DNA of 64,000 bases from Candidatus Hermodarchaeota archaeon (GTDB lineage Archaea; Asgardarchaeota; Hermodarchaeia; Hermodarchaeales; Hermodarchaeaceae). A model generated the notes under the pieces. It saw nothing but the letters and a program-made list of their open reading frames with translations. It had not been told where the DNA came from and did not search any database. The stretch lies in the NCBI GenBank assembly GCA_016839805.1, contig JAEOTO010000031.1, forward strand, positions 1-64,000. Direction: 5' to 3'. Shown in pieces: positions 12,720 to 43,529 of the stretch (its first letter is position 1; the number at the start of each line of letters is the position of its first letter). The position numbers and the translations under genes were made by a program.

Positions 12720-13445
12720 ATGCTGAATGGAGAGCGGGTCCTCGCATCATTCCAGAACGGGAATAACCTCCGACAACTTCTAACCGCGACTTCAGGCGAA
12801 ACAATTTTGGAAACTAGACATCTCCCCGAAGCCCTTCGAGAATCAACCATCCTTCAGGCTCTAGAATCCGTTAATATGCTTAGGAGGGACTCGGAGAGTC
12901 AGTGGTCTTTTCCTGGATATGCGAAAGTACAAGTGGCGATTCGAGCACTCCAATTAGGTGAACCCCAACGACCGATTTTAAACGCGTTGACTTGGCAAGA
13001 ATTCGAGGAATTTGTAGTTAATGTTCTAACCTACCATGAGTATCAGGTGTTACATCGATTTCGCTTTTCGACACACCGGCGGTTTGAAATAGACATCATC
13101 GCAGGACATAAACCTAAACTCCTCTGCATCGACTGTAAACAATTCGGAGTTCGGTTAGGTAAAGCATCCGCACTACGTAGTGCCAGCGAGGAACAATTGG
13201 TTCGAACTCAAACTTTAGCAGATAATTTTGCCCGGTTTCAAACGGATCTTGGATGTTTGGATTGGCAACAACCACTGTTGATTCCGATGCTTGTGACAAT
13301 GTTGCAAGAAGACATTCAATTCCATGAACGAATTCCCATTGTGTCAGCTGCGCATTTGAACGCCTTTCTTTTAGAGTTCGAAAAACAATTGGATTCGTTA
13401 TGTTTTGTACGCCCGGGGTCAGGGCGCCAGCAACGGTTAGTTTAG
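12720..13445 (+). CDS. PD-(D/E)xK restriction endonuclease-like (Mrr/NERD-type) protein
   Basis: LTWQEFEEFV...EIDIIA....LLCIDCKQ. Confidence 0.8.
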   Translation: MLNGERVLASFQNGNNLRQLLTATSGETILETRHLPEALRESTILQALESVNMLRRDSESQWSFPGYAKVQVAIRALQLGEPQRPILNALTWQEFEEFVVNVLTYHEYQVLHRFRFSTHRRFEIDIIAGHKPKLLCIDCKQFGVRLGKASALRSASEEQLVRTQTLADNFARFQTDLGCLDWQQPLLIPMLVTMLQEDIQFHERIPIVSAAHLNAFLLEFEKQLDSLCFVRPGSGRQQRLV

Positions 13446-13774
13446 AAAAGTTTGGGTTGTCCACCATGCTTGGCTATCGCACAATTTAGAACCCAAAGAA
13501 AGTCCTCGAGTAATGTAAGCAGTTGATCAAGGTTTTGATGAGATTGAGGGGCCAACATTGAACCACTTTCGTTAATGATACTATGACCTTGTTGAGTGAG
13601 GAATCCATAGATTTGTTGTAAGTTATGAAAAAGAGTATTTAGCTCATCAATGCGTTCTTGAATAATCCGCTTCTCCCCAATTCCTCGACCAGGTCCCCGT
13701 CGTTGAAGAGATTGAATTATTTTATCTCGATCTAGTTTGAAACTACGCGAGTTGAGATCCTTTCTGTCGTTCAT
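13442..13774 (-). CDS. Small helical hypothetical protein (probable start ATG 13774)
   Basis: AGGAG RBS before ATG 13774; lies directly downstream of the large regulator. Confidence 0.65.
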   Translation of the reverse strand: MNDRKDLNSRSFKLDRDKIIQSLQRRGPGRGIGEKRIIQERIDELNTLFHNLQQIYGFLTQQGHSIINESGSMLAPQSHQNLDQLLTLLEDFLWVLNCAIAKHGGQPKLF

Positions 13775-13793
13775 TTTTTTTCTCCTGGGATCA

Positions 13794-15557
13794 TTATCTT
13801 CTATCTTGGTTGTTTTCATAGCCGTGAAGTTCACGATGTTGTGGTTCTACATAATCAAAAGCCGTTGGAAAGTATTCTCGATGCCATTCCCATTGATTTA
13901 ATTCAATATTATATTGGCAACGTTTGAGGACAGGTGTCAACATGAAATCCTTCGAACCATTGCCATAAAATACCGCTGCGTCGAATTCGTCTTGTTCTAA
14001 GAACAGACGGTCAAGTTCTCGTCCAACCTTAAGAGCTAGACCAGTTGGGAGACCAAAAGCGACAATACAACCAGGGGTTGGATGATTGAAAACAGAGCCT
14101 CCATACATAGGAGCCTCCTGGCAACCGACAAGGAAGTTGCGGACTGTGTATCCACTACCTTCGAGGATAATGAAAATCGATTCATTGAGTCCTAGATGAT
14201 ACATACTCAGATCGGGGCGTTCGAAAACCACTCCTTGGTCGAATATTTTTTTCTGGTGACGTCGTATTACATGGACGGATACTCCTAGTAGTTGAGCAAG
14301 GCTATCAGCAGTACTATCAGGGTGCATATGAGCCAGGAGCTGATAATCAATAGATTCGAGTTCTACTGGTTCAATATTGGATTCGCTATATTGATAGATA
14401 TTAGGTTGTGTGAGAACTTCGCCATACCCTTCACGGATGAGAATGTCGCGAAGATATCGAATCCAGGCCACCCATCGGAACCTTTCAGCAATGGGAATAG
14501 CTGAATCATGGGCTAAGTAACTGCGGAGATTATAACCATTAAAGACACCACTTAGAGGGTAGAAACGATATCGAAGTAGATGACCAAGCCCCACGAGTTC
14601 TTGAAGCCATCTCTGCAATCGACTGAGTCGGAGTCGTGGAAGAATATAACTGAGGAGATAAGGCGCACCTGCACCGCCAAAGCGGTGTATTTTCCGCAGG
14701 TAAGGGCATTGCTCTAAATAGCGATTAACTCGACTGCCTGGTGCGGGATAAGCGAGAATTGCTACATGATTAAGGCGGATACGAGGAAAATCGATGCGGT
14801 AGAATCGTGAAAGAAGGAGTTTCTCACGGAAACTTGTCACGTAATTACTTAGACTACCTATGGAGAGGGAAGATTGTTCCTGTAGTTGTTTGAGGGTTGC
14901 CATGGGGTTTTCTTGGATGAGGTGGAGGACATAGAGTTCTTGTTCATTTAAAGGAGAGGTATAGTTCAGCATAAAGGTTTCAATTAATTCAACATATTCA
15001 CGAGGGGCGAGGGGGGTAATTGCAGGTTCGAGTTCGTGTAGAATGGGGAGGACTCGACGGAGGAAGCTGCCTTGCGTAACACGATTGAAGAGGGGAAAAG
15101 TCATGGGAGCATTGTATACGATGTCTCCATAATACCGACGAGGTGAGACAACTTGCCAAAGTTTTAGGAATTGTTCATGTTCGGTTAGGGGTAAATGATG
15201 AAAAGCACAAAGCAGCCCAAGATCTCTACTCTCAGAAACTTCCCGAACCACCAATGGAAGTAGAATTGAATACATCTCTCGATAGAGTACACTGTCAAGA
15301 AGAAATGGTCGATTGAAAAGTTGAGTTGCTAATCGGAACTCAGTATTTTCATAAGTACCGCAGAAGGTAGGGTCGGTAAGTGTTTCATCATCAAAGAAGT
15401 GGATACGAGTTGGTAGAGGAGGCGTGCGGTCGGTCAACTCCTTGATGTCTGCTTGAATTGATTGCAAACGTTTTTTGACCATTTGCCGTTGGTGCCGGCG
15501 TTTATTCGCACTGGGTTTTTTTGTTTTAGTTTCTTGTGTACGCGCCGTAGTCGCCAA
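13794..15557 (-). CDS. Large transcriptional regulator with two winged-HTH/Lrp-like units
   Basis: HTH1 LHLIQENPMATLKQLQEQSSLSIGSLSNYVTSF and HTH2 DYQLLAHM...TADSLAQLLGVSVHVIRRHQKKI, each followed by a ferredoxin-like (RAM-type) beta/alpha pattern. Confidence 0.7.
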   Translation of the reverse strand: MATTARTQETKTKKPSANKRRHQRQMVKKRLQSIQADIKELTDRTPPLPTRIHFFDDETLTDPTFCGTYENTEFRLATQLFNRPFLLDSVLYREMYSILLPLVVREVSESRDLGLLCAFHHLPLTEHEQFLKLWQVVSPRRYYGDIVYNAPMTFPLFNRVTQGSFLRRVLPILHELEPAITPLAPREYVELIETFMLNYTSPLNEQELYVLHLIQENPMATLKQLQEQSSLSIGSLSNYVTSFREKLLLSRFYRIDFPRIRLNHVAILAYPAPGSRVNRYLEQCPYLRKIHRFGGAGAPYLLSYILPRLRLSRLQRWLQELVGLGHLLRYRFYPLSGVFNGYNLRSYLAHDSAIPIAERFRWVAWIRYLRDILIREGYGEVLTQPNIYQYSESNIEPVELESIDYQLLAHMHPDSTADSLAQLLGVSVHVIRRHQKKIFDQGVVFERPDLSMYHLGLNESIFIILEGSGYTVRNFLVGCQEAPMYGGSVFNHPTPGCIVAFGLPTGLALKVGRELDRLFLEQDEFDAAVFYGNGSKDFMLTPVLKRCQYNIELNQWEWHREYFPTAFDYVEPQHRELHGYENNQDRR

Positions 15558-15874
15558 GCCTAGATTCGCCCCCTACTCGGCGGTTGCCATTGAAAAACTT
15601 CAAGAGCCGTTGATGCGTATTTAAAGCCCACGATAGATATAGAAAAAACAGCTTCTTAACGCTAGAATAGTAAAAAAACACCGAATATTACTTTAAAACA
15701 GATTTAAACATATTATAGCTCTACAGACAGAAAACTAAGCCAAATAAATCGTTAAAAATTGATTTGATGATACTTATTTCAACCGTACTGTGATAATAAT
15801 TTCAGTCACTTAATAATTCTGAAAAATAATTTTGTCATTTCTAGTCAGACCCGGATTGAGGTCAAAGAGGTTGC

Positions 15875-16810
15875 TCATTGTATTCGTCGGGTTAGTGGGT
15901 GCACCTCGCATGTTCGGTTCTTACAGGCTGTACATTCTGAACTTTGATGGACCCAATAGCGATCGAAGCGATCGACGAATTGAGATACAAAATCAGGATT
16001 ATTTGTTGCAGTGGCTTGTTCGCCGATACCTGACAGCCCCTTTGCGGTGAAGTTCGCGCTGCCTTCGAGGACTTCTGTTTCGTCGATGATTAGAGCTTTG
16101 ATATGCATCTGAGCACAAACCAGAATTTCAATCGTGGATGAGTCCTGAAGTAGTTTCTCGACAGCTTCTTGGAAGTGCTTTGAGGTTGCACCAAAGGCTT
16201 CAGGTTCTCGGATGATGATTCTGACCGTTACCCCTTCTTTCGATTTAGCTACGAGACGGTCGATAAGATTTACTTCACAACTTTCGGTACCAACGGTGAT
16301 AGTTTTGACATCTGTTAGATTCTGCACCATGATACGGATGCTTTGACTTGTACACTCTAACATTTCGACCATCTTACACGCGATAGCAATGCCATTGAGT
16401 AACTGATGTTGAGTGGGTTCTACATCTCCCTCTTCTTGCACTACTTCGTTGTCAGCATTAGAGACCAGTGATTCAGGGGATGCTTCTTCACTGGCGGGGG
16501 CATGTAGCGGTTCGTCGCTTTCTAGAGTTGGGGGTTGTGAAGATGTGGGATAGAAACTGTCTAACGCCTCTACTAGATCAATTGGTAAACTTTCACCACG
16601 ACGGAGCACCTTAGTAATTTCCACAAGAATTCTTGCACGTTTGTATGCGATTTTATGGGCGGAGCCTGTAGAGTGTTTCGCAATTTCCTTGAAGGCTTCG
16701 GCGGCTTTGAGGGCAGCTTCGGAGGCGTTGTAAAAGTCGCCTTGACCCATGAATTTGCGAATCAAGAGTAAAGCTTCTCGTGCTACTCGACCGAGTCGCG
16801 TTGTATTCAC
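15875..16810 (-). CDS. Single-HKD phospholipase D/Nuc-family protein with N-terminal MIT-like domain and C-terminal Cys/His motif
   Basis: HIKALIID (HxKxxxxD) and GSANFT; three-helix N-terminus; acidic linker; CTACKNRTCEVH tail. Confidence 0.8.
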   Translation of the reverse strand: MNTTRLGRVAREALLLIRKFMGQGDFYNASEAALKAAEAFKEIAKHSTGSAHKIAYKRARILVEITKVLRRGESLPIDLVEALDSFYPTSSQPPTLESDEPLHAPASEEASPESLVSNADNEVVQEEGDVEPTQHQLLNGIAIACKMVEMLECTSQSIRIMVQNLTDVKTITVGTESCEVNLIDRLVAKSKEGVTVRIIIREPEAFGATSKHFQEAVEKLLQDSSTIEILVCAQMHIKALIIDETEVLEGSANFTAKGLSGIGEQATATNNPDFVSQFVDRFDRYWVHQSSECTACKNRTCEVHPLTRRIQ

Positions 16811-16890: not shown

Positions 16891-18483
16891 TCAAGGTTGG
16901 GGAGAATTGGTTGGACTTGATATTGTGAAATATTGTGCGTATTCAGCAAGTGCGGACTCCCCCTTTGGAGTAATGGTAAATACTGTGCGCCGATAGGGGC
17001 GCTTTCCCATTTCATGAGATTGGATATATCGGTGTGAGATGAGGGTTTCTAGGAGGTAGACAACTAAATCATCAGCATATCCGCTAGTTTGCGAAAGAGC
17101 AGTAGGAGTTAGTTGGTATTCACGTAAGAGCCCAAGAATGCGAACGGCTTCTTCTAAATAGTTCGTGAAATCTTTGTGGAGCATTGTGGGAGAAGGCAGA
17201 ATTTCAGGAGGTTGACTTGGGAGCTGAACCGTGAATGGATCGTAGTCAATTCCAAGGGGCCGGGGGGGCAGAGCAGTGATGCGAACAGGAATTGCCGTTT
17301 GTAGATCGGGACGTGTCATTAGAGCTGTTCCGGGTTCTAAGGTACGTAGCAATTCTCGTTGATGATGACTTTCACGTTTTGTTGAGTAAGGACTGGTGCG
17401 AATTCCAGAAAGTTTGAGTGGAACCTGGATGGCATCGATATCTCGTTTGAGTTTCAGTTGATGGACGATGAGGGTGCCAAATAGTCCCAGGGTTTCAGGG
17501 TAAAGCTGAGCTGGATGGTTTCCACTGAGATGAAGTGCGATATCGGATTGGGATAAGCGGTGTTGCCAATGACGAATATCTTTGATGCCTTCTATTTCTT
17601 TTTGGTATGTGCCTGAGGAATTGAATAGATACAAGTCGGCGTCATCGATGAGAAGGATAAGGGGGGGAATAAGGGTGCTTGGTTTGTGTTCTAGCCGCAA
17701 GGCACAAGCTTTTGCCAGAATTAAGTTAATCAGGAAGGTGTGGATTTGTCGATTTGATATAGGGCATTCGATAACTGTGATGCCACTGGAGATGAGCTGG
17801 GCAAATTGTGGGTGTGAATTCCCAGTAAAACAGGCCCCAGCAAGACCAGAAGTTAATGAGGAAAACAGCCGTTCAAGAAATTGAGCGTCGCGGCGTTCAC
17901 TAAAGTCAGAAAATTCACCTCGAGCTTGATAGGCACGAATTTCGTCAAGCAGATCTAACAATGTGGGTGGGGAATGAATTGAATAGATGTTTGCAAGTAA
18001 TCTTTGGAGAAGTAACCACTGTTTATCAGATAAAGCAAAAGGGTGTAAGGCGGCAATCAGCAGATCCGTATAAGAATTAATTTCATCAAGGTTTTCAGTA
18101 TCTAAGGGATTGATGCGAAGATTATGACCTAGTTTGTAGATTCGACATTCGGGTGTATATTGTACCAGGTTCCGATAGGTAGATCTTGTGGTAATAATAA
18201 TGTAAGCAAAAGCCCGACGTGATGCTTCGAGGGCTATACGTTGATTAGTTTGGATTCGAGATTTGGTCTGACCGAGAGTAAGAAGACCAGCAGAAAGGTC
18301 GTCGAAGCGGAGACCAACCCGAGTTTCTGATTGCATGGTTTCTGTTTCATAAGTATACCCAAGGAAGAGATCCGATTCTAAGTTTTCAGGAACTATGAAT
18401 TCAGCAGGGATTGAACTGCCCAGACCCTTAGCAAGTAATGGCGGAATCCGCAGGAAGAGGCGAACAGATTCCGCCCCGGTCAG
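16891..18483 (-). CDS. VirB4/HerA (DUF87)-like P-loop domain plus C-terminal winged helix; probable -1 frame part of a frameshifted gene (first ATG 18336)
   Basis: LRINPLD, Walker-B-like LLIDDAD, PAQL...LIVHQL, LEPGTALM; wHTH ending FTITPKG. The frame is open for 49 codons upstream of ATG 18336, back to the slippery site. Confidence 0.75.
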   Translation of the reverse strand: MTGAESVRLFLRIPPLLAKGLGSSIPAEFIVPENLESDLFLGYTYETETMQSETRVGLRFDDLSAGLLTLGQTKSRIQTNQRIALEASRRAFAYIIITTRSTYRNLVQYTPECRIYKLGHNLRINPLDTENLDEINSYTDLLIAALHPFALSDKQWLLLQRLLANIYSIHSPPTLLDLLDEIRAYQARGEFSDFSERRDAQFLERLFSSLTSGLAGACFTGNSHPQFAQLISSGITVIECPISNRQIHTFLINLILAKACALRLEHKPSTLIPPLILLIDDADLYLFNSSGTYQKEIEGIKDIRHWQHRLSQSDIALHLSGNHPAQLYPETLGLFGTLIVHQLKLKRDIDAIQVPLKLSGIRTSPYSTKRESHHQRELLRTLEPGTALMTRPDLQTAIPVRITALPPRPLGIDYDPFTVQLPSQPPEILPSPTMLHKDFTNYLEEAVRILGLLREYQLTPTALSQTSGYADDLVVYLLETLISHRYIQSHEMGKRPYRRTVFTITPKGESALAEYAQYFTISSPTNSPQP

Positions 18484-18489
18484 AAAAAA
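18440..18489 (-). other. Putative programmed -1 ribosomal frameshift signal
   Basis: In-frame T TTT TTC heptamer (18489-18483) directly before TGA, 7-nt spacer, then an 11-bp stem GGCGGAATCTG/CGGATTCCGCC (18475-18465 with 18450-18440). Confidence 0.8.
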
Positions 18490-19397
18490 TTGGGTGGTTT
18501 CCCTTGAAGGAGAAGTGATCGAATCCCATCTTCGAGTTCGGATCCGGTAAGGCGTCGGAGACGGATATGAGGGTAGGCTGTTCGGAAGGCAATTTGCAGG
18601 GTTTGGAGGTCATGTTGAGTCTGATTTTCAAGAACTTCTTCGGATACACTATCATTGCTGATTGAGCTATCTCGGCGTGTTCCTAAGAGTAACCGGGTTT
18701 TCCACATTCCACCCCATCGCCATGTAAATGCGGCTTGCTGGGTATTATCGAGATTACTCAAAGTATTTTGTGCCTCATTGGAGAGAGCAGCATGACTTGG
18801 CAGGGATTGGCTGGGAACTGGTGCATGTAATAGAGCGTAGAAGAGGGGGACGCCAGCACTGTATATGGCTCGGATAAAGGCGGACATATTTCCGCGTATA
18901 CCGACTGGAACTTTATCGATGACTAAGAGTGCTGTGGCAGAGATTCCTCCTTTGTGCGACATTAGTAGCACATCCTGATTAGGTGTAAGAAAAAATTCTA
19001 CATCAGCGAGTGGATAGATTTGGTGATTTTCAGTTGTGCTGAGATGTTTCTTGCTTTTGAAGACATTTCGCAGAATCTGTCGAGTACGTGGAAAGAAGAT
19101 GATGGTACTTATACTTTGTAATAGGAGAAAGAGTCCGATTGCTGTTGGTGTCGTGATAAGTGGAATGAGTATCATGCACAGTGCGGTATTAATGATGAGG
19201 GTTAGAAACCAGGATCTGCAAGAGCGTGTCTGTTGTTGATCTTCTGTGCTTCGCCAGAACCACCCGGTAAAACGCATTTCATCTTGGATGGAGACGGTTG
19301 GTCGTTGGCGTGAGGACGATGGGGTACCGGCTTGGGCCGCCAGAACACGTGTTTGTGTAGAAGTAGTTTCAAACCAAGATTCTTTTTTTGCACACAT
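18480..19397 (-). CDS. Two-TM membrane protein; zero-frame N-terminal part of the frameshifted VirB4/HerA-like gene (probable start ATG 19397)
   Basis: AGGTGA RBS before MCAKKESW; two TM helices then a soluble domain; ends PPNFF* on the slippery site. Confidence 0.75.
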   Translation of the reverse strand: MCAKKESWFETTSTQTRVLAAQAGTPSSSRQRPTVSIQDEMRFTGWFWRSTEDQQQTRSCRSWFLTLIINTALCMILIPLITTPTAIGLFLLLQSISTIIFFPRTRQILRNVFKSKKHLSTTENHQIYPLADVEFFLTPNQDVLLMSHKGGISATALLVIDKVPVGIRGNMSAFIRAIYSAGVPLFYALLHAPVPSQSLPSHAALSNEAQNTLSNLDNTQQAAFTWRWGGMWKTRLLLGTRRDSSISNDSVSEEVLENQTQHDLQTLQIAFRTAYPHIRLRRLTGSELEDGIRSLLLQGKPPNFF

Positions 19398-19411
19398 TTT
19401 TTGGTTCACCT

Positions 19412-19936
19412 TTAAAGGATGAGTAAGAGGAAGAGACCGAAGCCAAGACCGCTGAGGAAGAGGCTGAAGGTTGAATAGGTCTTGAGCTCGAGTATGTATG
19501 GAACTGTTAGGAAGGGTAGGGGAACAAGAAGGGGAAGAAAGATTAGGACCCATTGGAAGGTGTAGGGTCTATTCAGATAGTTTACAACAAGGAACGTGAT
19601 AGTAAAAATACTGGATACACAGGCGTAGAGGGCAAATTGTGACCATGAGTGCTTATATGGAGATTGGTTAGCTGAGGGTAGGATTATTTCTTGAATGTGG
19701 GGTTGTAGATTCGTATCTAACTTGTTATTATTTGTGGAGTGAAGGGGCTGTCCTTGATTTTGATTAGGTTGTGTGAAAACAAGTAAGAGATGTTGTTTTG
19801 CAAAGTCATTGGATTGTTTGCCTTGTCGGGTTTTTCGATAGATTTGCCATGCAATTAGAATCTCAATGAAAAATCCGATGATGATAATGATTGTGAGAGA
19901 ATTAAACCAGTTAGCCATGTGGGGACTCACCTTCAT
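19412..19936 (-). CDS. Hypothetical 4-TM membrane protein
   Basis: One N-terminal and three C-terminal hydrophobic helices; closely spaced or overlapping with its neighbours. Confidence 0.7.
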   Translation of the reverse strand: MKVSPHMANWFNSLTIIIIIGFFIEILIAWQIYRKTRQGKQSNDFAKQHLLLVFTQPNQNQGQPLHSTNNNKLDTNLQPHIQEIILPSANQSPYKHSWSQFALYACVSSIFTITFLVVNYLNRPYTFQWVLIFLPLLVPLPFLTVPYILELKTYSTFSLFLSGLGFGLFLLLIL

Positions 19937-22900
19937 TTGTTTTGGAGTTCATCTCCTTTGAGAAAAAGTGAAAGAGCCGGTTTACCAGTTCAGGATTTTC
20001 CCCTTTCACTTTTATGTGGAGTTCATTGCCGTTTTTCTCCCAGGTCAATACCACCCGATTTTTTGTACGGTCCTTTGTCTCAGCCTTGTTTAATCCAAAC
20101 TCTTTCATTGCTTGGGTGATTTGTCGGTGGACTTCAGGGGGAAGGATATTGAGCTGATGCTCTGTGGCATCTGTTGAGGACCCCCATTTCATCTCTCGAG
20201 AATTTGTGCCAGGAGGAATGAGGAGAGATGATGGCGTGGATTGAGTAGGAGGGTTGCGCTGGGCGCGTTTGCCGTTACGCATCCATATTATTCCGATAAC
20301 GCAGAGGCTGATAAGGAAGATTGGTGGGATTAATGTGATGATGAGATTTATTGTGGAGTGAGCAATGAAAATTTGATTTTCGACTGACATGATTCGGTAG
20401 GTTTCAAGATAGAGTGCGATGGAAACATAACGAATGCCGGTATCCATAATGGTTTGCGGGATGTACTGAACTGTTAATGAAATTGTTCGGATTTCATTGG
20501 GCTGGAGGATGGTTTGTGTAGAGCCGTAAAAATTCGCTTCGCCAACAATTTCAAAAGCGCGAGTTTGGGATCCAAGATTGGTTATATTTACTGTTACTTG
20601 GAAAGGTGTGTTTTGGATAACATCTTGGGGCATCTCAATGAGTGTTAACATGAAGGCAACCTGTACATTTAGAGGAACATGTTCACAATGTAGAATTAGG
20701 TCGGGTGTTGAAATCAGAAGAGTAAGGTTATGGAGTTGTGATGGACAATTGGGGAGAATTTGAACGTGTAGATGGTAGAGATTTTCACCTGGGGTGAGTA
20801 GGAGATTGGTTTTATTGATGTATCCAACTAGGGTTGCTGAGAGGCTTAGGTTGATGTTTGTTGGAGCATCCAAGCTTGAATTAATGAAACAGAATACTGA
20901 GAGCCGTTCACCTTGTTGAACGGATGACTCGTATTGTAAATAAGTTGAACATAGTGACAGTGGCGTTAAAATAAAGAGGGATTCAAGGTCAGGCTCAATG
21001 CAGGCATGGATGTAATGTGAGGCTGGGTTAGTGAGGAAGAGTGGAGTAGTGGTAATCCCTGATTCATTAGTGACTAGATGAGTGAGTTGTGGTTTGGGGA
21101 AATATTTGCAAGTGATGTTTACCTGGACTGGCTGATTAGAGTATCCTGTCCAATTGATGAAATTATAGACAAGAACATAAAGGATAGGAGTAGTTCCAAC
21201 GCGTGGATTTTTTTGGTCGATTCCTTGGCAAATCCCAAACGTAGTTTGATCGAGGAGCCATGAAAGACTGTTAGTAGCAATATGACCGCTATTGGAAGGT
21301 TGAGGTGTATTGAGTCCTAAGAAAACAATCGGAATTTGTGTTGATGTGGGTGGGAAATAGGCGAGGCTGCACCAGGAGGCATTTCCTACTAGGATGAGAG
21401 TGGGTGTTAATGGAGCAACCGCATAAACGAGGGGGCTATTTCTAAAGAGTTGTGCATCCTCTCCCATTAGTAAATGGGGACTTTGAATAATTGGATGAAA
21501 TGCCTTGAATCCCTCTACTCCGAGTGATTGGGTACCCCTTGAAGTTGTGGAGGTCATGGTTAATTCATGGAGTAACTGACAGCCAGCTTTTCCGAGAGCT
21601 AGAATAGGAATTGAGAGGTTAACTAATCGGAGTGCATTGATAGGTATGATGGTGAAACCTGGATCAAGGACCAGAGTCTGATATTGGTGGAGAGATGGAT
21701 CCAGGTAATCAGTGAGGGTGATATTGTTACTAGGGGATAATGTGGGATACCATTGAGCAAGGTAGTTGGGTGGTGTTGGGGGAAGATGGTAGGTTAGGGC
21801 AAGAATCGTTGCGATGATTAAACGAGTGATGTTTAATAGATTAATAGTACTGCATTGGATTTCTGTATCATGGAATGTGTGTTTGTACGGGTCAGGGTAT
21901 TGATCTGTTGAGAGAGTGAGTGAAGGGATAGAATTAGTATGAAACATCCACTCTGAAATACTCCATGCTTGAGACTTTTGAACTTCTTCCAACGTATTTG
22001 CGCGAGGTTTTTCAGTATCTAAGAGTGAGAATCCTAGATTAGTACTTGCAGCGGTTAAATTTGAAAGAAGGGGTTGGACGCCTTCATTGGGGTACCGATA
22101 GATTGCCAGGTTAGTGGGGAGGAACATACCCTTGTAGGCAATCTCATCGAGATTTAGAGCTATAGAGGTGGATTTGTTGATTCCTAATGTAGGTAGTCCG
22201 TGTTCTAGGAGTTGTAGTGATCCCCAAAGGGATAGGGAGCCATTGCCTTCTTCCCCACTGAGGAATGCGAATAGTACATTCCAATTCTGGTAAATTCCTG
22301 AGTGTTGCGTTAATACACAGATTGTTTCAAGGAGTGTTACGACACCGGAGGCATCGTCATTCGCACCTGGAGCGTTTGAGGATGCTAGACCTAATAGCGT
22401 GAAACGTGCTGAGTCAACGTGGCATGTGATGAGTAAGGTGGGAGCAGCCGGATTAACATCCCAGGGTGTCACGTATAGATTTCGAGTCCAGTATGTCTGA
22501 TAGACGTAGTCGATTCCATTCCAGACTCTTTTGGGTATGATGAACCAGTCTTCTGTATACGAAACGCCTATTTGGGTTAGGGAAGAGGTCACCCAGTCTA
22601 GTGAGGCATTTCCGTCGATATTGAAGGGATGACGACTGTCAAACCCTGTTAGGATGTGGAGAAGACCCAATAGACGCGTCACATTTACACGTGTTGCTAA
22701 TTCTCGCTGCCAGTGGGCTAGGCTTGATATATTTGCCACATATGCAACGGAAGGAGGGGACGATTCGGGTGGAGAAACATAGCAAGAATGTTGGAGGGGA
22801 AAAGCTGCTGTACGTGGCGGGGAACCGAGGGGAAAATGAGACGCAGATCTTGGCACTTCAGATACAGGTTGAGCTGAAGCTATGGCACCTAGCAGCAAGC

Positions 22901-22961: not shown

Positions 22962-22988
22962 TTTGAATTGTTTATATGCGTTATGGTC

Positions 22989-23004
22989 TTGATTTTTAAA
23001 TCAA
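22989..23004. promoter_or_regulatory. Palindrome overlapping the TATA box of the M28 operon
   Basis: TTGATTT-TT-AAATCAA, about 30-40 nt upstream of the 22961 start. Confidence 0.4.
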
Positions 23005-33392: not shown

Positions 33393-34420
33393 TCGGTGTC
33401 ACCATTATCAGTACTTGTGGGGTTAGCGAGGGTGCCAAGACCGTTTTTGTCTACGAGTCCAATGTCGGTGAGATAATAGGTGACTTCCTCTTCGGGAAGG
33501 TCAGGTGCGTCCCGGATGGTTGCTCGACGTTCTTCTCCTTTAATTGGGCGTAGTCGAATTCGGTAAGTTGAGCCATAAGCGAGGATATTCCCACCTGCCT
33601 CCTTGGTGGGGCTTCCAAAGGGTGAGGGATTAGCTCGAACTTGGTTTGTGAATATTACAACTGCTTGGTAGGCATCAGCATATTCGATGAGAAGCTGTAA
33701 CAAGCGACTAATAATCTGCTGTCGTCGTGCTAACGTTTCTCGACCAATAAATTCAGCACCAAAATGTCGAATTAGGCTATCAACGACGATGAGTTTAGCG
33801 TTTGTAGCGTCTAATACAAAGGGGAGGCGTTCTTCGATGAGCCAGCGGAGATGATGAGCATTGACAACCTTAACGTAGTTTATACTCTCAACAGCCATAT
33901 TGGGATCCATGCCAAACCGCTCTGCAATTCGGGAAACCCGATCTGGACGAAATGTCTTTTCTGTGTCTAGCCAGATAGCAGGACCACCTCGACCATGGAC
34001 GGTGTATTCTTCATCCTTTCCAATCTGAATAGTTCGTCCATCGGGTGGGAGTTGCACGGTTACACAGCACTGGCAGCACACCGAGGTTTTACCAGATCGG
34101 GCTGGTCCGACAAATTCATAGATAGCACCTGCACGAAGACCACCACCTAGAATCTTATCCAACCCAGCCACACCAGTAGAAAATATTGGTACATCTAATA
34201 CTTTGGCAGCTATACTACCTGGAACGAAATCCAAGGCCATTTTTTCTTTCAGCATAAGGCGGGCTTCAGTGATGAATCGGTTTCCAGTGCTTTCTGGTAA
34301 TCCCGTACGGTCTGCCATCACCTTAGGGTCCTGAATGGCTAGGGCTTCAAGTGTGAGAATTCCTGCGTCTTGCAGTTTTTGCAGGCTTTTAGGACCAAGT
34401 CCATTTACATCTTTAAGCAA
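33389..34420 (-). CDS. radA: RadA/Rad51-family recombinase (divergent paralog)
   Basis: N-terminal HhH domain (GLGPKSLQKLQDAG), GPARSGKT, DTEKTFRPDR, VVDSL...AEFIGRETLARRQQ, TNQV, GGNILAY. Confidence 0.85.
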   Translation of the reverse strand: MLKDVNGLGPKSLQKLQDAGILTLEALAIQDPKVMADRTGLPESTGNRFITEARLMLKEKMALDFVPGSIAAKVLDVPIFSTGVAGLDKILGGGLRAGAIYEFVGPARSGKTSVCCQCCVTVQLPPDGRTIQIGKDEEYTVHGRGGPAIWLDTEKTFRPDRVSRIAERFGMDPNMAVESINYVKVVNAHHLRWLIEERLPFVLDATNAKLIVVDSLIRHFGAEFIGRETLARRQQIISRLLQLLIEYADAYQAVVIFTNQVRANPSPFGSPTKEAGGNILAYGSTYRIRLRPIKGEERRATIRDAPDLPEEEVTYYLTDIGLVDKNGLGTLANPTSTDNGDTE

Positions 34421-34486: not shown

Positions 34487-35149
34487 TTATGAATTTCGGT
34501 GTGGTTTGAAAACTTGCCAGAATAATAAGGCGAGTAATGCACCTGCTAAGACTGCTCCACTGAAAAGCCATATTGAGAACGGGAGTGCCCACAAGGTTCG
34601 TAGGAATAGGTAGGTAAGGGCAGTGAATAGGGGTATGGATAATAGACCTAATTCCAGGATGGTTTGATTTGGTCTTTCTTTTGCCACTGATGTAACTAAT
34701 TTTATGTCTGCTTTGCTTGGGGCGAGTCCGATAAAAAAGCAGAAGGCGAAGTAATATTTGAGAATTTCATGCATAGGGATAATGACCCAGAAGGCAATTA
34801 GAAGATACAAAGCGAGTGCTAAAATGATAAGTGGGGCAAAACCGATAAGAACGCTGGTTGTGAAAGTGTGGATTTTACTGGCTTCAACAACTACACCTCC
34901 TGCAACGCCATTACGGTTACCAATGAAGATTCGGTGTTCCAGAATTGGAATGCCTGTAATGCGACAGAGGAGATCGTGGCATATCTCATGGAGAACTACA
35001 CCAGGAAAAGCAAGATAGCGAAGGAGGGTTCCAAGGCGATGGCTGATGAAATCAGTAAAGGTCATGAGGAGCAGGCTAGCAATAAGAAAGAGGGGAATAC
35101 AGAACATGACTTCTAGGAGCAGTCCCAGTGCATAGAGATCAGGATTCAC
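34487..35149 (-). CDS. Membrane zinc metalloprotease (DUF3267/M50B-like; probable start GTG 35149)
   Basis: PGVVLHEICH (HExxH), GFAP, PSKAD; multiple TM helices. Confidence 0.8.
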   Translation of the reverse strand: MNPDLYALGLLLEVMFCIPLFLIASLLLMTFTDFISHRLGTLLRYLAFPGVVLHEICHDLLCRITGIPILEHRIFIGNRNGVAGGVVVEASKIHTFTTSVLIGFAPLIILALALYLLIAFWVIIPMHEILKYYFAFCFFIGLAPSKADIKLVTSVAKERPNQTILELGLLSIPLFTALTYLFLRTLWALPFSIWLFSGAVLAGALLALLFWQVFKPHRNS

Positions 35150-35159
35150 CTGCACCGGT

Positions 35160-37592
35160 TCACCCTCGTTGTTGAATCTTCTGAGATTTGGTTTTTCGTC
35201 TTCGCCGTGGTTGGGGAAGTGTGTCATCGAGAAATTGATTTTGCGATTGACCATCGAGGGTGGGTAGCACATCCATAGCTCGGAGTTGGTGTATATTCGC
35301 GATTAGGTGCTCTGCTTTGGGTTTCGTTAAAAGGCGTTCTGTACCGTTAAAACAGAGTTTGACAGAGCCTGGGGGTAATTTCAATACTTTACTTGCAGTA
35401 GGGTGGTTTTCGCTGTCGATGTACTGGGCAATAAGATAGGGTTCTTCAGCTGCAGCTGTTTCGAGTGCATCGAGGATGAATTGATCCCGAGGAAGACGTA
35501 CAACGGCTAATGCAATAAGTTGCATACGCGCTAGGACTCGTCGTTCCTGAGCGACCGATAAATCGACTTCCATTACCCGCTGTGTGGCTGTGTTCAAAGG
35601 AGCAGTTATCACTTCTTCAATGACATCATCTATTTCCGCTACTACCGAAGATGGAAGTGAACCTGACTCAGATACTTTGGCAGGCTCTGTTTTGTTTTTA
35701 TCAGAGACGGATTCCGTTTTTTGATTAATTACCCCTTGGGGAGAAGCCGGTTCCAGTGCTTCAGGGTCAATCTGATAGGTTTGAGCCGTCTTGATGAGAC
35801 TTTCTACCTGGTCAAGAAATCCTTTGATTCGGTATTTGATAATGAGGTCGGTGGGAACTGGGAATGCATCTTCAACTATATGCATCAATAATTGACGTGA
35901 AAGCAAACAGATGAAAGGTAATGAAGGGGGCTCAGTGCTTCCTTCAACGCGAAAGAGCTGGTAATATTCCATAATTTCGGGGGTACGTTCGGAGTCACCA
36001 AGTCCCGGGAAAAGGATTACATTCAGTTTTGAGCCTAATTGCTGGGCGACTTGATTCACATGAGTTAGGAGTGTGCTCCAACTAGTGACATATCGGTTTG
36101 CGAAGACCAGGAGGTAAGGAGAAGCCCCACTTCGGATTAAATCAGATAGTAATCTCAAGTCATTTTTAGATTCCACTCGCAAAGGAACCCCTTGATCTAG
36201 AGTGGTTGGTGTTGATGGAGTATCTGTCGGTATAATTTGTCTTGGTTGTATAGGTATTGTCCGTGATGGTTCACGATTCATTTCTTGATCAAAAACCAAA
36301 GAATTGGGTGTAGGGAGTTTAGGTTGCGTTATAGGCAGTGATATTAAATTATTGACTCGTGGAATCACTTGGAAGACCTGGATTTCCCAAGTGGGGGGAA
36401 TGGCATGTTGTTGCCGAAGGATATGGACTGCATAATTCATGAGTTGCTGAGCTTCTGAGGGTAAAAGGGGCCGCTGTTGTCGGGCAATCGCAAGGCGTTG
36501 AAGCCAAGCAGCGAGCGATTGGCGTGTTTCATCAGAATCTATCTGGTTAAGAAGCGATGTTAGATTATCCGGTGGAGCTTCGCCACTTTGTTTCAAAACA
36601 CCCATTCGCAAGCCATTGATCAGGAAAGCACGGGCATGTTCGGAGAAGCCACGCCAATTCCCTGCCTGATAGGTGTTTAAAGAGGCCGTCATCGCGGCGT
36701 GAATTGTGTCCTGAAGATATGCTGCAGTGGTTGTAGCAGTCCAGGCAGTGTTAGTAGTAACTAGTTCATCATTGACATTTAGCTGGCTGAGCTCTGCTGG
36801 TTGCCCTTGAATACCAATAACTTCTGGAGGTGCCGATACCGTCGAGGGCGATTTAAGAAGCGTTACTTTGATGGAATGTTGCAATCTGAATCGATGAAAT
36901 GCGTTCAGGGCTTTTCGAAGCAATAAGATCGGGGCAAAAAGTCCACACAGCATTATTGGAATTCCTAGTAGAACCAGACCAAGTCCCCAAAGAATGCCTG
37001 AAAGTCCTAGCAAAAACGGGAAACAAATTAAGGCAAGACTCAGATACTGATATGCCCTTTGAAGGGGACGAAAAGTCCCTTCAAGTGGGTGCAGTTTTGT
37101 ATCACTTTGAATGATATTTTGAGTGAGATACGTTGCGAGTTGGTTTACCTGAATTATAGGTGGTGCAAACACCGAAGTAGAGTCTTGGAAGACTTCAGGG
37201 TTAGTGGAAGAATGCGAGATGAAAAGAGGGTAAATCCGACATTCGAGGAGATGACCAGATTCATCGGTGAGAATGTACGCCTTTTTACCGAGGAATGTGA
37301 TGGTTTGGCTTTGAGTTTTAGGGTTAAGGTGGAGAGTGGGGCTTTGGAGTTGAGTTTGGAGTTGTGAGATAGCTTGAATGAGAAGGGGAACCTCATTAGA
37401 GAGCGTCTCACCCTTCCCTTGGAGTTCTCGATAAACAAGAAAATCGCAGCAAACAACATCCTGAATATCATATTTGCGCACCGTGAGTTGAGTACCATCT
37501 ACTCCTGTCGGCAAGGGCACAAAATCCTGTTCTTGCAGGATTTGTTGTATATCAGTTGATCTAGGTTGATTCACTCTTTTCACTTCGCCCAT
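35160..37592 (-). CDS. Large multidomain membrane protein of unknown function
   Basis: 810-aa ORF; TM hairpin near residues 185-225, a helical domain, Pro/Thr linkers and two alpha/beta domains. Confidence 0.7.
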   Translation of the reverse strand: MGEVKRVNQPRSTDIQQILQEQDFVPLPTGVDGTQLTVRKYDIQDVVCCDFLVYRELQGKGETLSNEVPLLIQAISQLQTQLQSPTLHLNPKTQSQTITFLGKKAYILTDESGHLLECRIYPLFISHSSTNPEVFQDSTSVFAPPIIQVNQLATYLTQNIIQSDTKLHPLEGTFRPLQRAYQYLSLALICFPFLLGLSGILWGLGLVLLGIPIMLCGLFAPILLLRKALNAFHRFRLQHSIKVTLLKSPSTVSAPPEVIGIQGQPAELSQLNVNDELVTTNTAWTATTTAAYLQDTIHAAMTASLNTYQAGNWRGFSEHARAFLINGLRMGVLKQSGEAPPDNLTSLLNQIDSDETRQSLAAWLQRLAIARQQRPLLPSEAQQLMNYAVHILRQQHAIPPTWEIQVFQVIPRVNNLISLPITQPKLPTPNSLVFDQEMNREPSRTIPIQPRQIIPTDTPSTPTTLDQGVPLRVESKNDLRLLSDLIRSGASPYLLVFANRYVTSWSTLLTHVNQVAQQLGSKLNVILFPGLGDSERTPEIMEYYQLFRVEGSTEPPSLPFICLLSRQLLMHIVEDAFPVPTDLIIKYRIKGFLDQVESLIKTAQTYQIDPEALEPASPQGVINQKTESVSDKNKTEPAKVSESGSLPSSVVAEIDDVIEEVITAPLNTATQRVMEVDLSVAQERRVLARMQLIALAVVRLPRDQFILDALETAAAEEPYLIAQYIDSENHPTASKVLKLPPGSVKLCFNGTERLLTKPKAEHLIANIHQLRAMDVLPTLDGQSQNQFLDDTLPQPRRRRKTKSQKIQQRG

Positions 37593-37665
37593 GAATAAGG
37601 GCAGCTGTGGGCGGCTTTTGAATAATTTTTAAGGATTTCTATTCGTGACAACTTTGGGATTGACC

Positions 37666-38631
37666 ATGGGAGTGAAACTAGCTCAGCTCGTCACAAGCGA
37701 AATCCGTAATCTTTCCACATTAACTCGAAAACGAGTGGTACTTGATGGCAGCTATGTCATTATTTCCGCATTGAAAAAAATCCGTCCTAATGGACAGATG
37801 TTCGTAAATCGTTGGGGTGAACCGCTCGCTCCAGTGCACGTAATCTTCTATAAAACCCTGCGTCTGCTCGAAGAGGGGATTCGACCAATTTACGTCTTTG
37901 ATGGCATTCCACCAATCGAGAAAAGATGCAACGATCAGCGAATACAACTCCACATGCAACAACTTTGGAAGGCTTACGAGAGAGCAAAAGAGGTGCAAGA
38001 TGGAGAAACGATTCGAAACCTTTTCCAAAGCACCGCATTAACTTACCGCAAAGCTATCCTCGACGCTGTGGAGTTACTCAAAGCCATGGGGGCCCCAGCA
38101 ATTATTGCACCAAGTGAAGGAGAAGCACAGGGAGCAGCCCTCGTGAAGGAGAACCGAGCGGATTTTCTCTTTACACCGGATTATGACGCCCTCATTTTTG
38201 GGTGTCCAACAATTATCCGTCGCATAGACTTCGACCAACACCAAATCGAAGTTATTGTATTAGAAAACGTCCTGAAAACTCTGGATCTAAATCTATCACA
38301 ATTAATCGACTTAGCAATCCTGATTGGAACAGATTTCAATAAGGGTGTTCCCCGTATTGGTCCAAGACGGGGATTGGCATTAATCAAAAAATACGAAGCC
38401 CTTGAACAAATTCCAACCTTATCCTCGATAGAAGACTTACTAGAAATCCGACAGCTGTTCCAAACTCCACCAATTATATCCTTTGATCCACATGTCCGTC
38501 CACCCAATGTGGAAATGGTCCAACGGCTCCTCCTTGAAAAGGGATTCAATGCTCGTCGCGCTCTGAAAGCAAGAAATCGACTTGTAAATGCTTATTATTC
38601 ACACCGAACGGCCCAACAACACCTTACTTGA
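37666..38631 (+). CDS. fen: Flap endonuclease FEN1/XPG-family nuclease (divergent; probable start ATG 37666)
   Basis: MGV start, VLDG, YVFDG, SEGEAQ, DYD, GTDFN, IGP..GL. Confidence 0.85.
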   Translation: MGVKLAQLVTSEIRNLSTLTRKRVVLDGSYVIISALKKIRPNGQMFVNRWGEPLAPVHVIFYKTLRLLEEGIRPIYVFDGIPPIEKRCNDQRIQLHMQQLWKAYERAKEVQDGETIRNLFQSTALTYRKAILDAVELLKAMGAPAIIAPSEGEAQGAALVKENRADFLFTPDYDALIFGCPTIIRRIDFDQHQIEVIVLENVLKTLDLNLSQLIDLAILIGTDFNKGVPRIGPRRGLALIKKYEALEQIPTLSSIEDLLEIRQLFQTPPIISFDPHVRPPNVEMVQRLLLEKGFNARRALKARNRLVNAYYSHRTAQQHLT

Positions 38632-40953: not shown

Positions 40954-41901
40954 ATGGAACCAAGTACACTTCTTCCACTGGATGGGCTCACCGAAGGTTA
41001 TGGTCTTCGTGATGATGCCCTTGATCAAATGCTAATGACCTCCGAATATCGTGAGGTGACGATTCAATATCGTTCAGCAATCAAGACTATTCAGGAAGCT
41101 TTTTGCAGCGATACACGAATCCGTGTAATTGCCTTTCCTCTCAATGACGACCAAGACCCGCTCTGGCCGCATATGGCATGGGTGCCGTTATGGTCGAACC
41201 GAGATACCTGCGTCCTCGTTGCTGATCCTTTAGAGCCTCCAAGCCGACACGACCTCGATTACCTTATTCCACAAGGATTTGCCCAACACGCTGCTCATGT
41301 AACCGAAGGATTTCCCTATTATTTACCAAACACCACACCGGAGATGCTTTGGCCTCAATATTTAGACTGTCATCCCATTCGGATATCTCCATTACATGTT
41401 TTGAATCCAAAGGTACCCCATCAGCCAGAAGAAAGCGAGCCCACAATGTTCGCATTAACTCTGGAAGCTATTCTCCGGTTACGAGCATTCATTGCGGACT
41501 ACTTGTTAATTGATCGTGGTTTTTCCACAGGTGTCGCATATCAACATGCTACCCTCCTCTATGAACTACCATTACCCGCATATTCCGATGCAGCAAACTC
41601 GCCTTGGCTTCTCTCCTTTCTCCTGATTGATGCCGCACGGGCAGCCGTTACCCTCGGGAAAACTAACTGTTTCACTTGGACTGGACTCCGGAACATGATT
41701 GACCAAGCACGGTGTCGACTTAGTGAACTTGATCATCTACTTGGAAACATCCAGCCAATGCCAACATTTACAAAACAATTTGACCAGATTCATCACTGCT
41801 TTACGACGTTGCATCCGTCTAGTTTGCGAGACTCCTCTGATACTAATCGGTTCATCTGCGAATTATTAGAGAAAGCAGATATCTATCAGGAAGAGCGTTA
41901 A
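40954..41901 (+). CDS. Hypothetical protein
   Basis: 315-aa ORF directly upstream of the Hef-like helicase; no recognised motif. Confidence 0.65.
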   Translation: MEPSTLLPLDGLTEGYGLRDDALDQMLMTSEYREVTIQYRSAIKTIQEAFCSDTRIRVIAFPLNDDQDPLWPHMAWVPLWSNRDTCVLVADPLEPPSRHDLDYLIPQGFAQHAAHVTEGFPYYLPNTTPEMLWPQYLDCHPIRISPLHVLNPKVPHQPEESEPTMFALTLEAILRLRAFIADYLLIDRGFSTGVAYQHATLLYELPLPAYSDAANSPWLLSFLLIDAARAAVTLGKTNCFTWTGLRNMIDQARCRLSELDHLLGNIQPMPTFTKQFDQIHHCFTTLHPSSLRDSSDTNRFICELLEKADIYQEER

Positions 41902-41960
41902 ATCGGATGAGCAACCAGTCACAAGATATAAAAACAGAGTAAAAACTGCACAGCATCTCG

Positions 41961-43529
41961 GTGACCGTGAACGCTGACTACTTTGACCTTCCACTTCTAA
42001 GGCCCCAAACAGTGAAGCGTCGTCTGTATCAGGAAGTAATTTTCGCCTCCGCCATCAACCAAAATACGTTAGTTGTTTTACCAACTGGATTGGGAAAAAC
42101 CATAATCGCAGTGGTTTTATGCGCATATCGTCTCGAAAAAGAGCCTATAGCAAAGGTTGTGATGTTAGCCCCTACACGACCTCTAGTGGGACAGCATCAT
42201 AAACGGTTTTCTGAGATGCTAATGATAATTCCCGAGAAGCTTCGCATGATTACAGGTAGAACACCTGTGAAACAACGGGCGAGGATATGGGAGAGGAGTA
42301 GTGTAATTTTCATGACCCCCCAAACCTTGCGAAATGATCTGGAACAGAATCGGTATTCTCTGAATGAGGTAGCGCTATTAATTTTCGATGAAGCGCACCG
42401 GGCGACTGGACGTTATGACTACATCGCACTAGCTGATTATTATCTTCGTCAACGAGATGATGGTCGAATTCTCGCTCTCACGGCTTCACCCAGAAAGGTG
42501 AGAGAACTAGGTGAGGCGTTGTATATCGAGAACATTGAAGTCCGAACAGAACAGAGCCCGGATTTAATTCCTTATATTCAACAGGTAGGCATCCATTATG
42601 TAATAGTAGATTTACCCCCCGAATATCAACAGATAGAAGCTTTACTTATACAGGGTACTCAAATGGCTGCCATACCCCTTATTGAATTGGGGCTAGTCAA
42701 ACCCAGCGAACTCAAGTTTCTCAGTCGACGTGATCTCCTCAAATATAGAATCTCTTTAGGACAACGAATTAAGTTTGGAGAGGGAACTTCTGAGCCACGT
42801 CTTTTTGATGCAATGCTTGGAATTGCCCTGATTCTCCGATTGTCGCATGCACGTGAAGTCCTCGAAACTCAGGGTGTACCACAACTCTTCGAATATTTTC
42901 GTGGAATTGAACGAAAAGCTCAAGATGAGAAGGCTCCAAAAAACGTTCACGTTCTCTTATCTAGCCCGTGGTATCATGAAGCCCGAAATCTCCTTGAAAC
43001 CTTGACACAACAAGGAGAAAATCATCCTAAACATCCTATTCTCCTTCGGATACTCCAAGAGCAGCTTCAACAGAAAGCTAATAGTCGTATTCTCGTATTT
43101 ACGCGATTTCGTGTCTCCGCAAAGATACTCACGAAGTATTTGAATGACCATGAAAAATTACGTGCTGCTCGATTTGTGGGTCAAACAAATATTCCTGGCG
43201 ATCGAGGCCTAAGTCAGAAAGAACAATTAGACCTTTTAGATGGCTTCCGAGCGAATACCTACAATGTGCTGGTTGCTACAAACGTGGGCGAAGAGGGATT
43301 AGATATCAGTGAGTGTAATCTTGTCGTCTTTTATGACAGTGTTCCGAGTGCAATTCGTCGAATTCAACGCGCAGGTCGTACAGGTCGACGGACACCGGGT
43401 CAGCTCATAGTCCTTATCACTAGAGGAACCCGTGATGAAAGTTACCATTACAGCAGCCTCCACAAAGAACGAAATATGCAATCAAAACTCATTCATTATT
43501 CGCGACGGTTACAAAATTCATCCAGATAG
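41961..43529 (+). CDS. Hef/Mph1/FANCM-family DEAH helicase lacking the ERCC4 nuclease domain
   Basis: RLYQE, LPTGLGKT, DEAHRATG.YDY, TASP, EEGLDI, IQRAGRTGR; ends shortly after motif VI. Confidence 0.9.
   Translation: MTVNADYFDLPLLRPQTVKRRLYQEVIFASAINQNTLVVLPTGLGKTIIAVVLCAYRLEKEPIAKVVMLAPTRPLVGQHHKRFSEMLMIIPEKLRMITGRTPVKQRARIWERSSVIFMTPQTLRNDLEQNRYSLNEVALLIFDEAHRATGRYDYIALADYYLRQRDDGRILALTASPRKVRELGEALYIENIEVRTEQSPDLIPYIQQVGIHYVIVDLPPEYQQIEALLIQGTQMAAIPLIELGLVKPSELKFLSRRDLLKYRISLGQRIKFGEGTSEPRLFDAMLGIALILRLSHAREVLETQGVPQLFEYFRGIERKAQDEKAPKNVHVLLSSPWYHEARNLLETLTQQGENHPKHPILLRILQEQLQQKANSRILVFTRFRVSAKILTKYLNDHEKLRAARFVGQTNIPGDRGLSQKEQLDLLDGFRANTYNVLVATNVGEEGLDISECNLVVFYDSVPSAIRRIQRAGRTGRRTPGQLIVLITRGTRDESYHYSSLHKERNMQSKLIHYSRRLQNSSR

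Follow-up and report, generated by a model that had tools for sequence, protein, structure and literature searches.

A predicted catalytically inactive VirB4-like protein and a set of additional recombination enzymes in a conserved gene module of Asgard archaea

Why should genes for a recombinase, helicases and a nuclease lie among genes for membrane and surface proteins, and could they together serve to move DNA between cells? The question is raised by a locus of Candidatus Hermodarchaeota archaeon (assembly GCA_016839805.1, here genome G000; 2.3 Mb, 87% complete), situated in the first 64 kb of contig C21 (JAEOTO010000031.1); this whole stretch of 64,000 nucleotides (nt) is referred to as the window. 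The original prediction for this DNA had described a conditionally expressed module for cell contact, DNA transfer and recombination, and all the open reading frames (ORFs) that it named were recovered with the same positions and strands. Our results indicate that the locus is very probably a real functional module, and comparison among genomes of Asgard archaea, the microbes most closely related to eukaryotes, points to a gene set that is pan-Asgard, ancient, chromosomal, vertically inherited and dispensable, and that includes a VirB4-like protein predicted to be catalytically dead. On balance we lean to the view that it forms a machine derived from a type IV secretion system (T4SS), which would import or exchange DNA and hand the incoming DNA to a private recombination toolkit.

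Co-occurrence across Asgard classes, which the original prediction had put forward as a check, is borne out. A comparison of gene neighbourhoods in about 29 loci rendered as recurrent neighbours of the VirB4-like gene a RadA paralog, one or two RadB-like genes, a Hel308 paralog with a SWIM zinc finger, a FEN1 paralog, a Zn-ribbon/winged-helix gene, an M50B-like gene and a giant surface protein with toroid and immunoglobulin-like (Ig) domains. Class-specific additions are XPD in Thorarchaeota (Thor) and Helarchaeota (Hel), and a nuclease-less Hef in Hermodarchaeia (Hermod) and Loki. Further carriers are Freyarchaeum (Freya), Jordarchaeales (Jord), Baldrarchaeia (Baldr), the cultured Promethearchaeum syntrophicum and family f4; no module was found in family f13, and none in the four f2 genomes, which are small (about 1.4 Mb). 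With the VirB4-like protein as query, matches were obtained in 86 of 301 Asgard genomes, and with a profile in 220 of 400, the weak ones of which may be an active paralog described below; a word-index homolog search with a fused VirB4 ortholog retrieved only two near copies. The nearest named relative, a Hermodarchaeia metagenome-assembled genome, shows 92% identity in the VirB4-like protein. Module RadA sequences from Hermod, Thor, Freya/Jord and Hel group together, separate from canonical RadA (support 97/90), with subgroups that track the host classes, and a single clade for all 26 module RadAs is not rejected (p 0.51); since the RadA branches are long, attraction is possible in this tree. 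Two peculiarities of the VirB4-like gene were observed along the way. In Baldrarchaeia (loci L066/L067, L068, L240 and L242) the dead gene continues directly into an operon for a nifH-like/nitrogenase-like oxidoreductase, and Loki-type genomes of family f9 (e.g. G026) often carry two or three copies of a dead VirB4 of about 1280 amino acids (aa).

Within the window, Pfam agreed with the recombination enzyme families that had been named, with Rad51-family matches at 33389-34420 and 26452-27195, DEAD/Helicase_C at 24224-26428 and 41961-43529, and XPG_N/I at 37645-38631; Peptidase_M28 and PLDc_2 were also matched, as were prenyltransferase toroid and Ig domains in the 1645-aa protein. The module RadA, Hel308, FEN1 and, at Walker A, the RadB-like protein have intact catalytic residues; the SWIM motif CxC-x11-CxH of the Hel308 paralog, already predicted, is invariant in every module ortholog examined. 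Two descriptions stood in part: the M50B-like protease has the HExxH and PSxxD motifs and no Pfam match, and the 810-aa membrane protein has a membrane segment, a single two-helix hairpin, followed by a HEPN-fold domain. The features are the following (for the ratio of nonsynonymous to synonymous substitution rates, dN/dS is used; losers are relatives that lost the enzymes).

16891-18483, minus: ATPase of dead VirB4/CedD-like fold (predicted) with a C-terminal winged helix; -1 frame ORF of 530 codons
18440-18475, minus: 12-bp stem-loop, candidate frameshift stimulator, starting 7 nt past the heptamer; -20.8 kcal/mol, z -3.1
18483-18489, minus: U-UUU-UUC, a slippery heptamer read in the upstream gene's frame, with the stop at 18482-18480 right after it
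18480-19397, minus: two-helix membrane protein with an alpha/beta domain, corresponding to the N-terminal half of the dead VirB4
19412-19936, minus: small membrane protein of 3-4 helices directly upstream of the VirB4 gene; position conserved, small membrane ORFs standing there also in Freya, Baldr and Hel loci; retained in most losers
19911-22961, minus: M28 peptidase surface protein (Pfam), which precedes the VirB4 gene in Freya as well; at its C-terminus, the helix and cytoplasmic domain (positions 871-988) resemble a small Baldrarchaeia module protein (hidden Markov model, E 5e-6)
24224-26428, plus: Hel308 paralog with the inserted SWIM zinc finger, adjoining the VirB4 gene in most classes
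26452-27195, minus: RadB-like Rad51 paralog, Walker A intact (Pfam, motif check)
27140-27571, minus: Zn-ribbon and winged-helix protein, conserved in Thor, Freya, Jord and Loki loci and retained in most losers
27568-32505, minus: 1645-aa surface protein with alpha/alpha toroid, Ig-like domains and C-terminal anchor; orthologs border the module in Thor, Baldr, Hel, Loki and family f4
32559-33392, minus: 277-aa membrane-anchored surface protein, adjoining the module RadA also in one Hel genome and a second Hermod genus
33389-34420, minus: module RadA paralog, Walker motifs intact, dN/dS 0.03, about 37% identical to canonical RadA
34487-35272, minus: M50B-like intramembrane protease; HExxH present in Hermod, Loki and Hel, gone in Thor
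35160-37592, minus: 810-aa protein with an N-terminal domain, the two-helix hairpin (common with Thor orthologs), the HEPN-fold domain (residues 285-401) and low-confidence thioredoxin-like domains
37645-38631, plus: module FEN1 paralog, all seven catalytic acids intact
41961-43529, plus: nuclease-less Hef (FANCM-like helicase) paralog; in the second Hermod genus its neighbour is the dead VirB4 or M50B gene, near which it also lies in Loki

The VirB4-like protein had been described as a frameshifted VirB4/HerA-like protein. The fold holds in a predicted model; a working Walker A or B was not found, and the likely motor is encoded on another contig. The window protein reads G-Q-T-K-S-R at Walker A and D-D-A-D at Walker B, and in 43 orthologs Walker A is devoid of the lysine (G-G-[TS]-x-x-E-R) and Walker B is DD, DG or similar, motifs by which the in-locus protein is judged to be catalytically dead. 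For the fold comparison a model of a fused ortholog was used (predicted local distance difference test 74.6), whose best match was VirB4, with both domains of R388 TrwK aligned (E 1e-13) and Z scores of 29.6 for the VirB4 ATPase domain, 25.9 for HerA and 23.9 for TrwB. The ATP-intact paralog (G000 C22:175660-178515) has 951 aa, two membrane helices and intact motifs; dead and active proteins are sister clades with a common architecture (HHalign 99.8% over 612 columns), and true HerA stands outside them. Both have CedD as best family match, at 54.5 and 26 bits against a CedD cut-off of 600, and CedD is the sole NCBIfam match of the dead protein (E 3.4e-6). The true herA operons on C42, C43 and C22 form a separate clade, and the locus does not have the make-up of a HerA-NurA end-resection system, in which an active HerA with HAS barrel adjoins nurA, mre11 and rad50. 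At 4.5 kb from the active VirB4, on the minus strand, lies a small two-helix VirB2-like gene (C22:183005-183250), a linkage that is found in Hermod, Thor and Baldr. That second locus also adjoins Ig-like surface genes, an HTH587 paralog and a roadblock/small-GTPase cluster, and a similar cluster borders the module in Freya, Jord and P. syntrophicum; G000 has two further VirB2-like genes (C2:3475, C32:27992).

That the module enzymes might be the sole housekeeping copies was considered and discarded. As the original prediction had proposed to check, canonical counterparts exist elsewhere: contig C22 carries a full-length Hef with nuclease, a canonical Hel308 with a long insertion, RadB and XPD. 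Canonical radA and fen are not in the G000 assembly; because their neighbour genes are missing too, and relatives place radA at the gap between C7 and C21 (just beyond the end of C7 in the sister genome, between C7 and C21 sequence in G001), the canonical copies fall in unassembled segments. Canonical RadA is present in 10 of 10 other Asgard genomes, nine of which have a divergent second copy near the dead VirB4 gene, and two FEN1 copies, the second being canonical, occur in all five well-assembled genomes checked. By these comparisons the module enzymes are additional copies and not the housekeeping ones. A stand-alone ERCC4 nuclease to pair with the short Hef was not found in G000; the P. 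syntrophicum locus has a weak ERCC4-like gene. The insertion in the canonical Hel308 (C22:56276-60085) has about 510 aa and is probably an intein; the protein is also long in G006, G015 and G018, and not in others.

Natural knock-outs bear on which genes belong together. In the host genus the chromosome is syntenic, yet at least 11 genomes are without the module enzymes and the dead VirB4. The lost set comprises both VirB4 halves (the N-terminal one going together with the enzymes), the genes for Hel308, RadA, FEN1, Hef and the RadB-like protein, and the C-terminal portion of the 810-aa gene, at five separate sites, and differing remnants persist in G001, G006, G008 and G012. Since G002 retains RadA, FEN1, Hef and the full 810-aa gene, which G006, its close sister in a tree of flanking genes, has lost, there have been at least two independent losses. 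The active VirB4 was found in G000, G002, G013 and G016, and in eight of eight losers checked it has been excised from its own syntenic site, with the flanks left adjacent; its deletion in the same losers ties the second locus to the module enzymes. Losers retain the Zn-ribbon, M50B and VirB2-like genes, together with those for the surface proteins and for the N-terminal portion of the 810-aa protein, with dN/dS of 0.18-0.46 (about 0.2 for the 1645-aa protein) versus 0.04-0.19 in flanking genes, which suggests another use or slow decay. The surface and membrane genes are under purifying selection in losers and persist there without the enzymes, which does not fit the module as originally outlined. 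An 815-aa gene at the VirB4 position in G006 was rejected as an ortholog, being an unrelated NosD-type protein.

The PLD, HTH587, 130-aa, EamA-like and 315-aa genes, of which the first two had been counted as members, are local neighbours that stay when the module is lost:

13794-16810, minus: HTH587 regulator and PLD genes, by sequence comparison local neighbours, probably not members

These two were kept in every loser with contig coverage there (dN/dS 0.12-0.13), and PLD was not seen in the loci of other families. This bears on whether the locus could be a membrane defence or nucleic-acid-sensing system, built on a HerA-type pseudo-ATPase, HEPN and PLD, or a decaying domesticated mobile element, which we consider very improbable. 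The HEPN fold of the 810-aa protein (structure match to 2hsb, Z 12.1), the PLD neighbour, the HerA anti-phage structures among the fold matches and the repeated loss would all fit defence; however, only Hermod-type orthologs show the HEPN domain, and the PLD gene stays when the enzymes are lost. Searches with the whole 810-aa protein rendered no usable match, and with a part of it only weak thioredoxin-like leads. Both defence and a mobile element are further opposed by trees that follow the host across the phylum, by the dN/dS of module genes (0.03-0.17), by a flat GC content (42-46%) across the locus, by the lack of a tRNA gene in the 64-kb window and by the lack of any match to integrase, relaxase or capsid families among the 20 ORFs scanned, the last as originally stated. 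Neither an integrase or relaxase nor a patchy, horizontal tree, as in an integrative conjugative element, was found; the borders were not searched for repeats.

What, then, could the module do? In the mechanism that we lean to, DNA would be brought in, probably from neighbouring cells, by the ATP-intact membrane VirB4/CedD-like paralog (G000 C22:175660-178515), near the VirB2-like gene, as motor, and the dead paralog would act as a non-catalytic partner or docking ring with its winged helix toward the cytoplasm. RadB-like paralogs would act as loaders for the module RadA, D-loop remodelling would fall to SWIM-Hel308 and the short Hef, and the FEN1 paralog would trim flaps. It is also possible that the proteins, tethered to the membrane, repair or recombine the DNA of their own cell (between genome copies, at division or under sporadic stress), with the dead VirB4 as an anchor and no transport, which we regard as unlikely. 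An in-locus VirB4 that cannot hydrolyse ATP, the winged helix, the intact state of all the enzymes and the absence of any channel among our matches are in keeping with it, but it would leave unexplained both the association with giant surface proteins, seen in six families, and the deletion, in the same lineages, of an unlinked ATP-intact VirB4 beside a VirB2-like gene. Less probable still is DNA export, or two-way exchange at cell contact or fusion, with the helicases and FEN1 making the donor substrate: VirB4, the TrwB-like fold and a VirB2-like pilin are donor parts in bacteria, and CedA1 and CedE take part in export (PMC11868833), but no relaxase was matched in the locus, and a strand-exchange protein and its loaders belong to the recipient side.

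Several observations weigh against import by a T4SS-derived machine and have kept our preference for it modest. The active VirB4 occurs in 227 of 301 Asgard genomes, far more than the module, so that it can serve without it, and it was not found in G017 and G018 (80-83% complete), which carry the dead one. The VirB2-like gene scores below the Pfam TrbC/VirB2 cut-off (E 7.5e-5; 23.3 bits against 27.9), lacks a standard start codon where one would be expected in G000 and, like the surface genes, is retained where the enzymes were lost. No TrbL/VirB6 match that would indicate a VirB6/CedA-like channel was obtained in the 87% complete G000, a search that remote homologs would escape. The co-loss rests on two or three events, relatives not being independent. 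As to expression, which may be inducible, no shared promoter motif was evident by eye and no module-specific TFB could be singled out among the many of Hermod. Hermodarchaeia (family f1) have about 5-8 TFB genes per genome (10-17 repeat matches per genome).

A further question is how the split VirB4 gene is read. The product of the upstream gene, about 305 aa from a probable ATG at 19397 (the longest ORF begins at 19553), is homologous to the N-terminus of fused Thor and Hel orthologs and to a separate Thor gene, c26; the gene ends in U-UUU-UUC and then the stop (18489-18480, minus). The -1 frame ORF opens at a CTG that overlaps this stop, and the -1 frame at the junction reads Phe-Phe-Leu-Thr-Gly-Ala-Glu; 49 codons past the junction are without ATG, GTG or TTG, the first standard start being an ATG at 18336, and these codons match the fused orthologs with dN/dS of 0.07-0.13. 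The hairpin, whose z score is -1.6 to -4.3 in five other loci and weak in some Freya, is an uncommon feature: one as stable directly after the stop was found in 8 of 2254 G000 genes, and any slippery heptamer at the end in 8 of 2258. The heptamer (or U7) plus stop is present in 15 loci (five Hermod-type, seven Freya, two Hel and one of family f30), and the hairpin is kept in the five Hermod loci; its register varies between lineages, although it always starts 3-7 nt past the heptamer. Sequencing error at the T run is ruled out by the identical break in 15 loci, and a pseudogene was rejected on its dN/dS of 0.11. With a zero-frame heptamer, a downstream structure and conserved start-less -1 coding, the junction is likely to be a programmed -1 ribosomal frameshift, which would yield a 305-aa membrane subunit and an 835-aa ring subunit. 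The short membrane subunit and the full-length ring subunit would be produced in this way in Hermod, Freya and Hel, and the short one from a separate gene in Thor. That homologous short Thor gene, and Loki, which appears to carry the N-terminal unit twice, suggest that the machine needs both forms.

It can also be the case that the junction simply separates two genes, with stop-start coupling at CTG/CTA, or that transcriptional slippage takes place on the T run, for which we see a minor chance. Baldr and Jord loci use true start codons (ATG/TTG) at the same spot, several other loci have a usable one at or near it (TTG at the junction in G306, ATG in one Hel locus), and the fused orthologs have Phe/Tyr here, hence T runs are likely. 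Yet the junction codon is CTA, a non-start, in 10 of the 15 loci, a T precedes TTT-TTC in all of them despite changes of the codon (Asn, His, Ser, Arg, Ala, Pro), the T run is merely 6-8 long, and three different hairpins stand at the same distance, with none in the five fused orthologs folded. Covariation in the hairpins is weak: that of Hermod has one-sided changes only, that of Freya is mixed and not above shuffles, and that of Hel/f30 has four double-sided changes in 14 pairs among three sequences. A genome-wide scan for slippery-site patterns gave mostly chance matches in these AT-rich genomes and recovered only known loci. A second frameshift candidate was seen at G000 C22:208805-209653 (plus), which ends in A-AAT-TTT; its -1 frame stays open over 300 codons or more, and there is a fold of -16.4 kcal/mol past the stop.

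Some observations concern the surroundings of the locus. The gap between the M28 and Hel308 genes (22961-24224) is variable, a DUF2769 gene at 23108-23374 coming and going among relatives, and a 148-aa ORF at 23601-24047 was rejected as a module gene, being a local insertion with DNA 88% identical to an unlinked site of G011. At 44303-45988 and 43595-44248 there are a GH3-family acyl-adenylate ligase and a 7-helix membrane gene, both retained in Hermod losers; several genomes have homologs of the two directly ahead of the Thor operon. At 12249-13445 a Roadblock-like gene is coupled with a PD-(D/E)xK nuclease-like gene, both present in all relatives. A 251-aa paralog of the Zn-ribbon/winged-helix gene, with one extra winged helix, is encoded at C22:118676-119431.

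We found no description of the operon or of the frameshift in the literature searched, whose coverage left out most subscription journals; the conserved -1 signal, the deletion in trans of the ATP-intact VirB4 in losers, the retention of surface and VirB2-like genes and the bystander position of PLD and HTH genes appear as new here. We put forward, as a tentative idea, that the ancestor of most Asgard archaea had a dedicated, switchable programme coupling cell-to-cell DNA transfer through a domesticated T4SS, with active and dead VirB4 and a subunit ratio set by frameshifting in some classes, to a private recombinase with its loaders, helicases and nuclease. If this were true, prokaryotes would have a counterpart to the way in which eukaryotes keep repair apart from sexual recombination, and DNA exchange in Asgard archaea bears on the origin of sex. 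Such exchange becomes testable with a parts list, natural knock-outs, a second locus that encodes a candidate motor, and the module of the cultured P. syntrophicum (at about 1.73-1.78 Mb). As very few cases of -1 frameshifting are known in archaeal cellular genes, a signal across several Asgard classes would be a clear new one.

How does the module compare with known systems? The eukaryotic Shu complex consists of the SWIM protein SWS1 and the RadA-like SWSAP1, and HELQ acts with RAD51 paralogs; the module likewise has a SWIM finger, a Hel308-family helicase and Rad51 paralogs together, a likeness of parts only. The likeness to eukaryotic RAD51 paralogs, HELQ, FANCM and XPG that had been pointed out holds at the family level and is limited to it. 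A duplication of RadA has been reported in some Asgard groups, with no gene context, and Rad51/DMC1 are placed outside all archaeal RadA (PMC12722695). Known cases of archaeal -1 frameshifting include Sulfolobus solfataricus fucA1, chlD of methanogens and haloviruses (PMC8211752); the junction resembles them in its X-XXY-YYZ heptamer, a structure 5-9 nt downstream (7 here) and a -1 ORF without a start, and differs in that the heptamer is U-rich and the gene is cellular, T4SS-derived and spread over several Asgard classes, and would give two subunits of one machine. Among bacterial conjugative T4SS, VirB4 (R388 TrwK; T. pseudethanolicus) is the best structural match over the N-terminal and ATPase domains, but identity is 12-14%, the motifs are dead, no relaxase or VirB6 was found and the module is no mobile element.

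The closest described systems are Ced of Sulfolobales (CedA, A1, A2, B, D and E) and Ted of Thermoproteales (PMC9905601, PMC11868833), papers that do not mention Asgard archaea. The choice of Ced as nearest system in the original prediction is supported by the CedD family match; by our comparisons the module is nevertheless not a member, since no channel was found, one ATPase is dead and the recombination enzymes are private. Ced needs two VirB4-like proteins, CedB and CedD, and CedA1 and CedE act in export as well (PMC11868833). The Asgard module shares with Ced and Ted a chromosomal location, a probable T4SS origin and a tie to homologous recombination. Like them it has two VirB4-like proteins that are anchored in the membrane and begin with an alpha/beta domain, and a small protein that is a candidate for a VirB2-like one. 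It differs from them in that CedA/VirB6 was not found in the 87% complete genome, that its VirB4-like proteins score far under the CedB/CedD cut-offs and one of them is dead and ends in a winged helix, and that its operon includes its own RadA, RadB, Hel308, FEN1 and Hef, with XPD in Thor.

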